NCBI GenBank assembly: GCA_015062535.1 | Contig: SUUK01000002.1 | Span: 31,946-95,945 of the forward strand | From: Alphaproteobacteria bacterium | Lineage (GTDB): Bacteria; Pseudomonadota; Alphaproteobacteria; RF32; CAG-239 | Direction of reading: 5' to 3' | DNA length: 64,000 bases | Shown here: one piece after another, positions 52,743 through 53,973 of the stretch | How positions within the stretch are numbered: the first letter of the stretch is position 1 | How the letters are laid out: each line of letters begins with the position of its first letter | Position numbers and translations under genes: made by a program | The notes under the pieces: model-generated | What the model was told of the DNA's origin: nothing | Databases searched by the model: none | Seen by the model: only the letters and a program-made list of their open reading frames with translations

Positions 52743-52771
52743 TTGCAAAAAGGTCGGTTTTGTGATATAAT
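52743..52771 (+). promoter_or_regulatory. Extended -10 promoter of the same module as the ank genes, driving ORF 52804-53973
   Basis: TTGCAA (52743-52748), 17-nt spacer ending in TTTTGTGA, TATAAT (52766-52771), then leader TGCTTATGTTTTAAGAAAAATAGAGG. Compare ank leader GGCTATGTTTTTTAGAAAAACGAGGG. Confidence 0.6.
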
Positions 52772-52803
52772 TGCTTATGTTTTAAGAAAAATAGAGGTTT
52801 TAG

Positions 52804-53973
52804 ATGAGTGGAAAATGGGAATCTATGGCTGTAGCTGCTTTGCTTTCTTCGACAATGAATGCACAATCAGCGCCTATGGAAAATAATAATCAAGATACAG
52901 AGAACCCTAATAGAATTGAGGTTGTTCAAGAAGATACTAGAGATACCTTAAGAAATGATTCTGCTATGGCTTGGGAAGAAGTTCAAAATATGGCAAATGT
53001 CCCACCAAGTAATGGAAATAGTTCAAGAGAGAGTGCTGTAGAGAGTATGAGAGCTGATTCTCTGACTTTTAATGAGGTTAATAGTAGATTAAATGGTAAT
53101 GTGCCTTTAAATGAATGCGTTGAAAGAAGTGTTACAGAATGTTTAGTTCAACAAGAAGGTACACATAGTAGAATTAGTCAAAGATACGGAGCTAGCAACG
53201 ATGCTTATGAAGGCAATGTTTATGGTGATTTTTTGGAATATTTAGCTACTTCTGGTGATAAAAAACTAGGAAGAGCTTTAGGTTTATCAGAAGATAAGAT
53301 GACACCAGAAAATATAACAATGGCTTTAGCGTATGGTCCGGAAATTTCAAGAGAAATGCAAGAGCAAATTTTTAATGAAGCAAGGCAAGATGGTCGATAT
53401 GAAGGATATAGAAATCAAACATCTTCTATGGGGGTAATGCAAGAAAGATATCCAGAATTATCTTCAACTGGTCAGATGCCTGAAGGAGGGGCGAGATTAT
53501 CTATTGGGCTTGAGCAATCAAAGGAAATGTGCGATAAAATTAATCAAAAATATGGAGAAAATGCAAATGCATTGATTGTTAGGGCTTTTACTGCTGATAA
53601 AGAGTTAGCTGAAAGCTTTGGTTTTAAGAAGGATGAAAAAGTTGATGCTCAACAATTAATATATATGTTAGCGGAGGCTGAAACATTACCTAAGGATGTT
53701 CAAGATAAATTGGTAACTCCTAAAGATAGAGAAAATGCGGATAAAGTATTAGATTTTATGGTGAACAAAGATAAAGATACCAAGTATTTTAGCTTTAATA
53801 GTGAAACCCAAAAAGGTGAAAATAAAGTTCAAGAAGTAGCTGATAATATTCGAGGAAATGATAATAAGACATTTAATTTAAATAAAGAATTAAGTAATAT
53901 ACATTCAAAGACAGTAAATACACAAGACGATATGAGTATGGCTGTGATGAGACATATTCAAGCTCAAAGGTAA
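52804..53973 (+). CDS. Hypothetical protein (orphan, effector candidate)
   Basis: 389 aa. GAGG RBS. Weakly hydrophobic N-terminus (MAVAALLSSTMNAQSAP). Gln/Glu/Asn-rich. No family recognised. Confidence 0.55.
   Translation: MSGKWESMAVAALLSSTMNAQSAPMENNNQDTENPNRIEVVQEDTRDTLRNDSAMAWEEVQNMANVPPSNGNSSRESAVESMRADSLTFNEVNSRLNGNVPLNECVERSVTECLVQQEGTHSRISQRYGASNDAYEGNVYGDFLEYLATSGDKKLGRALGLSEDKMTPENITMALAYGPEISREMQEQIFNEARQDGRYEGYRNQTSSMGVMQERYPELSSTGQMPEGGARLSIGLEQSKEMCDKINQKYGENANALIVRAFTADKELAESFGFKKDEKVDAQQLIYMLAEAETLPKDVQDKLVTPKDRENADKVLDFMVNKDKDTKYFSFNSETQKGENKVQEVADNIRGNDNKTFNLNKELSNIHSKTVNTQDDMSMAVMRHIQAQR

Follow-up and report, generated by a model that had tools for sequence, protein, structure and literature searches.

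Why does an orphan gene carry an upstream region resembling that of a family of ankyrin-repeat genes? This question is raised by ORF389, an open reading frame (ORF) that sits between two arrays of ankyrin-repeat (ank) genes in a stretch of 64,000 nucleotides (nt) from an alphaproteobacterium of the RF32 lineage, hereafter the window (positions 31946-95945 of contig C10 in genome G000, which comprises 1.73 Mb in 15 contigs with 32% G+C). ORF389 and the ank genes are not paralogous, the former having no domain and the latter Ank repeats. A preliminary description of the window had noticed that four ank genes and ORF389 are preceded by one promoter-leader module, and had read it as the mark of either a shared regulon or a portable cassette; the observation is confirmed and its interpretation is partly supported. 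The ORF389 promoter is the most ank-like promoter in the genome apart from those of the ank genes. Moreover, alignments among strains and species show it to be a derived allele that arrived on a delimited tract replacing the native promoter, and there is about an even chance that an ank-type promoter-leader was grafted onto ORF389 in an event of promoter reuse.

Anatomy of the Promoter-Leader Module

The five modules lie where they had been claimed to lie, their -35 hexamers starting at 43487, 45121, 52743, 61724, and 62910, and the strings quoted for them are exact. Their extents and that of ORF389 are the following:

43475..43548, forward strand: ank-family promoter-leader module; ank start at 43546; REP-type hairpin repeat upstream
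45109..45182, forward strand: ank-family promoter-leader module; ank start at 45180; hairpin repeat upstream
52732..52798, forward strand: ank-like promoter-leader tract of ORF389, recognized by a covariance model (CM), nhmmer, BLASTN, and a promoter scan; it contains a T-run, the -35 TTGCAA (52743-52748), a 17-nt spacer ending in TGTGA (52761-52765), the -10 TATAAT (52766-52771), TATGTTTT (52776-52783), an A-rich leader, and GAGG (52794-52797)
52799..52803, forward strand: spacer between the Shine–Dalgarno (SD) sequence and the ATG of ORF389, (GAGG)TTTTAG, outside the hidden Markov model (HMM) and CM matches
52804..53973, forward strand: ORF389, an orphan; its N-terminus resembles a signal peptide, some 90 residues are disordered, and the core is all-helical
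61713..61787, forward strand: ank-family promoter-leader module; probable ank start at 61785; hairpin repeat upstream
62901..62972, forward strand: ank-family promoter-leader module; ank start at 62970; hairpin repeat upstream

The four flanking genes that bear the module code for ankyrin-repeat proteins according to Pfam. In the five copies of the window, a 17-nt spacer ending in (T)TTTGTGA or TTATGA leads to a -10 hexamer, TAAAAT or TATAAT, followed by nGGCTATGTTTT (by TGCTTATGTTTT in the ORF389 copy), an A-rich stretch, GAGG or GGGG, and an ATG located approximately 30-32 nt past the -10. A pattern scan of the region upstream of ORF389 found TTGCAA-17-TATAAT at 52743-52771, preceded at the -10 by TG and matching in 10/12 positions, as the sole 10/12 site with TG. 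This promoter conforms to the sigma-70 extended -10 pattern (TTGnnn, a spacer of 16-18 nt, TGn, and TAnnnT), and all ank copies display the same architecture.

Distribution in the Genome and the Genus

The first nhmmer model, built from the five window copies, gave approximately 26 significant matches in G000; an ank-only model, built from 23 non-redundant ank copies with ORF389 left out, gave 28 matches at E<1e-3; and a sequence-only CM of the ank copies gave 30. The genome thus holds approximately 30 copies of the module among roughly 1,250 called genes, 28 of which precede a single family of ankyrin paralogues with the conserved N-terminus MSE(N/V)(I/T)LE(K/S)QL..II.D.EMAE.IKLAK.DML..LG. 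With only some 30 matches, the genome search disposes of the possibility, raised in the preliminary description, that the module is the generic promoter of most genes. Three apparent non-ank carriers (C1:13928, C2:20913, and C2:69145) were ruled out as such, since their genes are diverged members of the ank family.

Two non-ank genes are left in G000, ORF389 and an orphan lipoprotein gene. The region upstream of ORF389 scores 30.9 bits against the ank-only nhmmer model (E=4.2e-7, 52733-52792) and 38.1 bits against the CM (E=2.7e-9, C10:84677-84742, i.e., window positions 52732-52797), which makes it the top non-ank match in G000 and places it above every match in 34 other species of the genus (maximum 27.7 bits). 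The lipoprotein gene, at C14:18375, reaches 20 bits with nhmmer and 23.5 bits with the CM. The sister species of G000, G004, contains 30 CM matches, nearly all of them before ank genes, together with the orthologous lipoprotein gene at 36.1 bits. Among 36 species of the genus, the high-copy module family is confined to these two, and the ank modules are almost invariant between them, whereas their coding DNA is only 82-87% identical. In metagenomes, the three matches to the ank-leader pattern all stand before ank genes; a metagenome scan for the exact pattern of the ORF389 promoter gave no match, and neither did a search of the genome contigs for loci related to ORF389.

When 51565-52803 was compared with the genus by BLASTN, only ank modules were retrieved, with 75-83% identity over 52-60 nt mapping to 52739-52798; the best alignments are those with G000:C15:6836-6895 and G004:C35:1617-1675 (82% over 60 nt) and with G004:C12 (83% over 52 nt). 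These results bear on the simplest alternative, a chance resemblance picked by eye among AT-rich upstream regions. The sequence is indeed of low complexity, made of T-runs and A-runs, and the leader part scored alone is not significant genome-wide (E=11). Nevertheless, chance is very improbable in view of genome-wide E-values of 4e-7 and 3e-9 obtained with models that were built from 22-23 non-redundant ank copies and exclude ORF389, and of its first rank among all non-ank promoters of 36 genomes.

Two Alleles at the ORF389 Locus

The locus involves two further genes:

51565..52647, reverse strand: Acyl_transf_3 acyltransferase gene, between the stop of an autotransporter gene and ORF389; lineage-specific
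53989..55542, forward strand: S41-peptidase-like gene, 15 nt past ORF389, with no terminator between

Orthologues of ORF389 occur in the genus with amino acid (aa) identities of 79% (G004), 41-42% (G013 and G020), and 39% (G045), and on metagenome contigs with 96, 92, 87, and 45-52% (L085 at 96%, L086 at 92%, L087 at 87%, and L088 and L093 at 45-48%). On the ank models, the promoters of L086, L087, G004, L088/L093, and G013/G020/G045 all lie within the range of generic promoters. L085 is alone among the orthologues in matching the ank model (26.4 bits), and it also has the acyltransferase gene. The other orthologues have in common a native form, TTTACA-17-TATAAT, which reads GTTTACAA...TTTTAGGGTATAAT; the two states of the locus can be written as TTTACA...AGGGTATAAT and TTGCAA...TGTGATATAAT for the native and the ank-like allele, respectively. 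The native promoter directly follows the autotransporter stop codon in L086 and G004, and a tRNA and terminator in L088; the L087 contig breaks off 49 nt before the gene starts.

The ank-like promoter is found precisely where a 1.16-kb insertion bearing the Acyl_transf_3 gene is found, and every orthologue without the insertion lacks this promoter. In the autotransporter 3' end, and again from approximately nt 200 of ORF389 through the S41-like gene, G000 and L086 share 97-100% identity, in contrast to only 66% over nt 1-100 of ORF389. L086 has no acyltransferase gene, has the native promoter, and is 98% identical to L087 at the 5' end. The ORF389 locus is a recombination mosaic with two alleles: allele A combines the acyltransferase, the ank-like promoter, and a 5' end coding for MSGKWES..., and allele B retains the native arrangement. 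Since the promoter form of allele B occurs in both near and distant relatives, the ank-like state is the derived one. Ordinary divergence of orthologous promoters between G000 and G004 was considered first, and was superseded by this mosaic at the level of strains.

The mosaic can be followed among strains and species in comparisons of 52804-53100 with L086, L087, and G004:C9, with breakpoints approximately 100-200 nt into the gene; in addition, nt 600-900 of ORF389 are 100% identical between L087 and G004, the remainder being 73-91% identical. The locus looks like a recombination hot-spot beside a Pmp-like autotransporter.

ATGAGTG, which had been counted as the last element of the module, occurs in just two of the window's four ank copies (the 43487 copy has ATGGGTG and the 61724 copy ATGAGAG), and orthologues with native promoters likewise begin with ATGAGT(AAG/GGT) (ATGAGTAAG or ATGAGTGGT); it is thus the ancestral start of ORF389 itself and was discarded as a part of any cassette. 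Similarly, the spacer between the SD sequence and the ATG (GAGGTTTTAG) is closer to that of the G004 orthologue (GAGGTTGTT) than to those of the ank copies (GAGGCAAAA).

Generic Promoter Style and Module-Specific Similarity

The allele-A promoter and the ank promoters could also be independent, strong, near-consensus promoters that came to lie near the same optimum, sharing a T-run, TTGCAA, a T-rich spacer end with TGTGA, TAnAAT, a GC-richer discriminator, TAT(A/G)TTT, an A-rich leader, and GAGG. Such convergence is the main rival of a graft, and it was weighed against the promoter style of the genome, taken from sites with TTGnnn-N17-TAnnAT located 15-60 nt before a crude gene start.

Several traits that had seemed characteristic of the module turned out to be common among these promoter-like sites, and weigh against descent from an ank promoter. 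A TG at -15/-14 is present in 37 of 78 non-ank sites, and the exact TTTGTGA in 8; the modal distance from the -10 to the ATG is 31-35 nt; and TAT[AG]T is strongly enriched 4-5 nt past the -10, with 14 of 141 sites against approximately one per other offset. Because of this commonness, neither the extended -10 nor the TATGTTTT start region is ank-specific, and the same applies to the length of the leader and to the SD sequence. TAT(A/G)T(TT) in the G000 sites is preceded by a GC-richer discriminator of 3-5 nt after the -10, and this context is probably the preferred start-site context of the organism. The preliminary claim that the similarity exceeds what the sigma-70 consensus explains holds for the sequence beyond the bare -35 and -10 hexamers, and fails for TTTGTGA, TAT(A/G)T, the leader length, and GAGG, which are widespread in the genome.

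Against a promoter-only null, the margin of ORF389 shrinks. On an anchored, ungapped position weight matrix (PWM), 76 other promoter-like sites average -55 bits and reach at most +0.6, whereas ORF389 obtains +48.5 bits, and by blocks it ranks first among 78 such sites in the up-element, fourth in the -35, fourth in the spacer, and second in both post -10 blocks. Over 45 non-core columns, it is identical to the ank consensus in 28, compared with 16.1±3.5 in other promoters. This last figure is also a point against the graft, as it lies little above the next best promoters (26, 25, and 24).

Convergence gains from the same sources. A generic PWM, built without the ank copies and ORF389, gives 26.2 to ORF389 and 18.7-27.8 to the ank copies, which puts all of them at the upper end of the generic range, whose maximum is 27.8; the extended -10, TAT[AG]T, and leader length are documented as generic in G000; look-alike promoters of 24-28 bits on the ank model stand before non-ank genes elsewhere in the genus; the promoter of L088 is 71% identical to that of G000; and the best other promoter in G000 comes within two non-core columns of ORF389. 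However, ORF389 stands approximately 10 bits above the best match of each of 34 other genomes and, on the anchored PWM, 48 bits above the best other G000 promoter, with high scores in five separate blocks; the model-free BLASTN comparison picks only ank modules; and the ank-like state came in abruptly, along with a structural rearrangement, and not by degrees. On balance, convergence is possible and somewhat doubtful.

A conserved non-ank gene of 383 aa found in three other species of the genus (MLNITEDLKSND...; G024:C1:129754, G046:C27:14146, and G021:C2:306548) has a promoter of similar style, with a terminator T-run, TTGCATAA, TTTTTGTAGTATATT, and GGC.CATATTT, which scores 24.6-27.7 bits on the ank model.

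A Possible Shared Regulon

The other reading offered in the preliminary description, that the ank genes and the ORF389/S41-like pair are co-regulated, would require that a trans-acting repressor, an activator, or an RNA-binding protein attaching to the leader recognizes a site in the module, perhaps the G-rich patch of the spacer or AATAGGCTATG across the -10 and the start, and that selection keeps this site before the ank genes, ORF389/S41-like, and the lipoprotein gene for joint expression. The near-invariance of the ank modules between two species suggests either constraint of this kind or concerted evolution, and a module-like promoter precedes two unrelated genes whose products are probably envelope or secreted proteins (ORF389 and, in both species, the lipoprotein gene). 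Nevertheless, no operator-like dyad or repeat common to ORF389 and the ank copies was found outside the core promoter elements, and ORF389, with AATTGCTTAT, does not preserve the AATAG-G-CTAT dyad seen in the ank copies. The leader RNAs fold no better than shuffled controls (minimum free energy of -0.3 to -3.1 kcal/mol, z of -0.2 to +0.8), so that a structured RNA or thermosensor was also rejected. Moreover, a near-consensus extended -10 promoter requires no activator, orthologues of ORF389 manage without the module, and gene conversion explains the uniformity of the ank copies equally well. Co-regulation by a dedicated factor thus finds no direct support and appears improbable.

Origin of the ORF389 Promoter

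The graft of an ank-type promoter-leader onto ORF389 may be pictured as follows. The module, of approximately 70 nt, appears as the promoter and short 5' leader of one large family of ankyrin-repeat paralogues. It consists of a -35 of sigma-70 type, a spacer of 17 nt, an extended -10 with TGn, the start region TATGTTTT, approximately 25 nt of unstructured, A/U-rich leader, and GAGG; it was duplicated along with the genes, and G000 and the sister species keep it nearly uniform. The ank copies share it because the duplication unit of the paralogues includes the upstream region. In the G000 lineage, a tract with the acyltransferase gene, a new intergenic region, the promoter-leader, and the first 100-200 nt of ORF389 replaced the native promoter, as the comparison of the two alleles shows. 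The promoter-leader in this tract would most probably descend from an ank-type promoter, joined to it through illegitimate recombination or through gene conversion at some point in the ank-rich lineage. The ORF389/S41-like operon would then be transcribed and translated in the manner of the ank genes, that is, strongly, from a near-consensus promoter that needs no activator.

Further points count against such a descent, in addition to the generic traits and the insignificance of the leader on its own. The ORF389 promoter is only 69-83% identical to any ank copy, the ank copies themselves being mostly 90-100% alike; neither a junction signature nor any single donor copy came to light; and the REP-type hairpin that adjoins the ank modules of the window was not found upstream of ORF389. 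Besides, the distant orthologue L088 has a native promoter that shares 71% identity with that of G000, almost as near as the ank copies, and since this native promoter is nearly as similar, evolution of the ORF389 promoter in situ is possible.

Of the interpretations proposed at the outset, the spread of a portable promoter-leader cassette fits best for ORF389, whose promoter is a derived allele; the ank copies share the module by paralogy. Whatever its origin, the predicted function of the promoter is ordinary: a near-consensus promoter of the sigma-70 extended -10 class, followed by a short, unstructured, A/U-rich leader with GAGG as the SD sequence, which should drive strong expression and need no activator.

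Comparison with Known Systems

ORF389 is best read as an ordinary case of promoter reuse, and putative mobile promoters are the closest concept. These were defined by at least 80% identity over at least 50 nt before non-paralogous genes, in a survey that extracted the sequences from -150 to -50 relative to the start codon (Matus-Garcia, Nijveen & van Passel 2012; commentary PMC3575422). As in that concept, similar upstream sequences stand before non-homologous genes of one genome, no known mobile element is involved, and a rewiring of expression would be expected. The identity of ORF389 (82% over 60 nt) exceeds the limit, at its lower edge, as other ank copies give 75-80%; in contrast, the similarity spans -72 to -6, with none upstream of -72, and thus does not coincide with the surveyed interval. 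Unlike the putative mobile promoters, the shared tract of ORF389 includes the -10, the leader, and the SD sequence, and population and comparative evidence identifies the reused promoter as one of two alleles, arrived on a recombination tract.

In promoter capture, exemplified by the cit amplification in the Escherichia coli long-term experiment and by promoter recruitment mediated by insertion sequences (IS) (as cited in PMC3575422), a new and stronger promoter is likewise gained by DNA rearrangement and not by point mutations. However, neither an IS element nor a tandem amplification is seen at ORF389, where the rearrangement is an insertion or replacement that also brought an acyltransferase gene and a divergent gene 5' end.

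Repeat-borne promoters, such as those of Correia elements, ERIC, and REPIN, resemble the ank promoter in that a promoter-bearing intergenic sequence occurs many times in the genome, and the promoter of the ank arrays adjoins a REP-type hairpin. Nevertheless, the ank promoter is copied with its gene and not as an autonomous element, and the ORF389 copy has no hairpin, terminal inverted repeats, or target duplication. The hairpin repeat (ATCCCTTGAC...GAGGGATGAC) found upstream of the four ank modules is absent within 52600-52900, and no transposase is present in 51400-56000. In the lack of a hairpin or terminal inverted repeat, a promoter borne by a repeat or a transposon was rejected for ORF389.

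Compared with sigma-70 promoters of the extended -10 (TGn) type with short unstructured leaders, nothing in the module is unusual: TTGCAA, a 17-nt spacer, TGn, TATAAT, and GAGG placed 6 nt ahead of the ATG. All copies are predicted to act in this way, their function and start site being read from sequence only.

Neighboring Genes and Leader Variants

ORF389 contains no domain found in Pfam or NCBIfam; its predicted structure has a predicted local distance difference test (pLDDT) score of 61 overall and 80-94 in the helical core, and a fold search against the PDB gave no informative match. Given the gap of 15 nt without a terminator, ORF389 and the S41-like gene probably form one operon. The pairing recurs on several metagenome contigs, and G004, the sister species, lacks the S41-like partner. 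The S41-like protein comprises 517 aa in G000, 516 aa in the distant relative L092, and 810 aa on the near-identical metagenome contigs L085 (1749-4181) and L086 (1437-3869), the G000 gene being 99% identical to the latter two up to an indel of approximately 900 nt near the 3' end; either a deletion in G000 or an insertion or fusion in L085/L086 would account for the difference.

The acyltransferase gene is present only in strains with the ank-like ORF389 promoter, and no DNA homologue turned up in any of the genus's other 35 species. Its probable origin is the horizontal acquisition of a surface-modification gene, inserted at the autotransporter stop codon.

The lipoprotein gene (G000:C14:18319-19435) codes for an orphan of 352 aa with a MGKIKEKIKEKLKK...LSSC lipobox and no Pfam match. 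Its ank-like promoter is present in both sister species (G004:C59:1829-1894), and it is the sole other non-ank gene with this type of promoter.

Several leaders contain small reading frames. An ATG lies within the TATGTTTT of the module, and many copies, including that of ORF389 (52777-52785), code for a mini-ORF, ATG TTT TGA/TAA, which would be leaderless if transcription began at the A of this ATG. Leaders of the TTTTTTAGAAAAACGAGGGCAAAATGA type contain a 9-codon ORF whose stop overlaps the ank start (ATGA; 62936-62965). In the 61724 copy, the ATG of the module is in frame with the ank ORF (61758-61787); the ORF listed from 61758 begins at this ATG inside TATGTTTT, and the true start is probably 61785. 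Finally, a further TATGTTTTGATGA motif lies behind a weak -10-like TAAATT at 52676-52700, approximately 100 nt 5' of the ORF389 TATGTTTT and oriented alike; on the ank model it does not reach significance, and it may be a second start site or a chance match.

Implications for the Organism

The elements of the module are standard sigma-70 and SD signals, and no new regulatory mechanism is revealed. A broader picture can be sketched tentatively, and we regard it as rather unlikely in its full extent: an ank promoter-leader cassette of approximately 66 nt would be portable in this lineage and would have been grafted onto the ORF389/S41-like operon in some strains and onto the lipoprotein gene in both sister species, so that strains would differ in whether the operon is co-expressed with the ankyrin repertoire (allele A) or driven by its native promoter (allele B), a promoter-swap polymorphism defining a small set of genes expressed for host interaction.

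If the graft of an ank-type promoter onto ORF389 is true, the locus would offer a clean natural example of promoter reuse, in which the native and the swapped allele are both still present in the population. As the tract is delimited to approximately 1.4 kb, the effect of the promoter swap on the orphan operon is directly testable, and the ORF389/S41-like pair and one orphan lipoprotein should then be expressed like the ankyrin-repeat repertoire.

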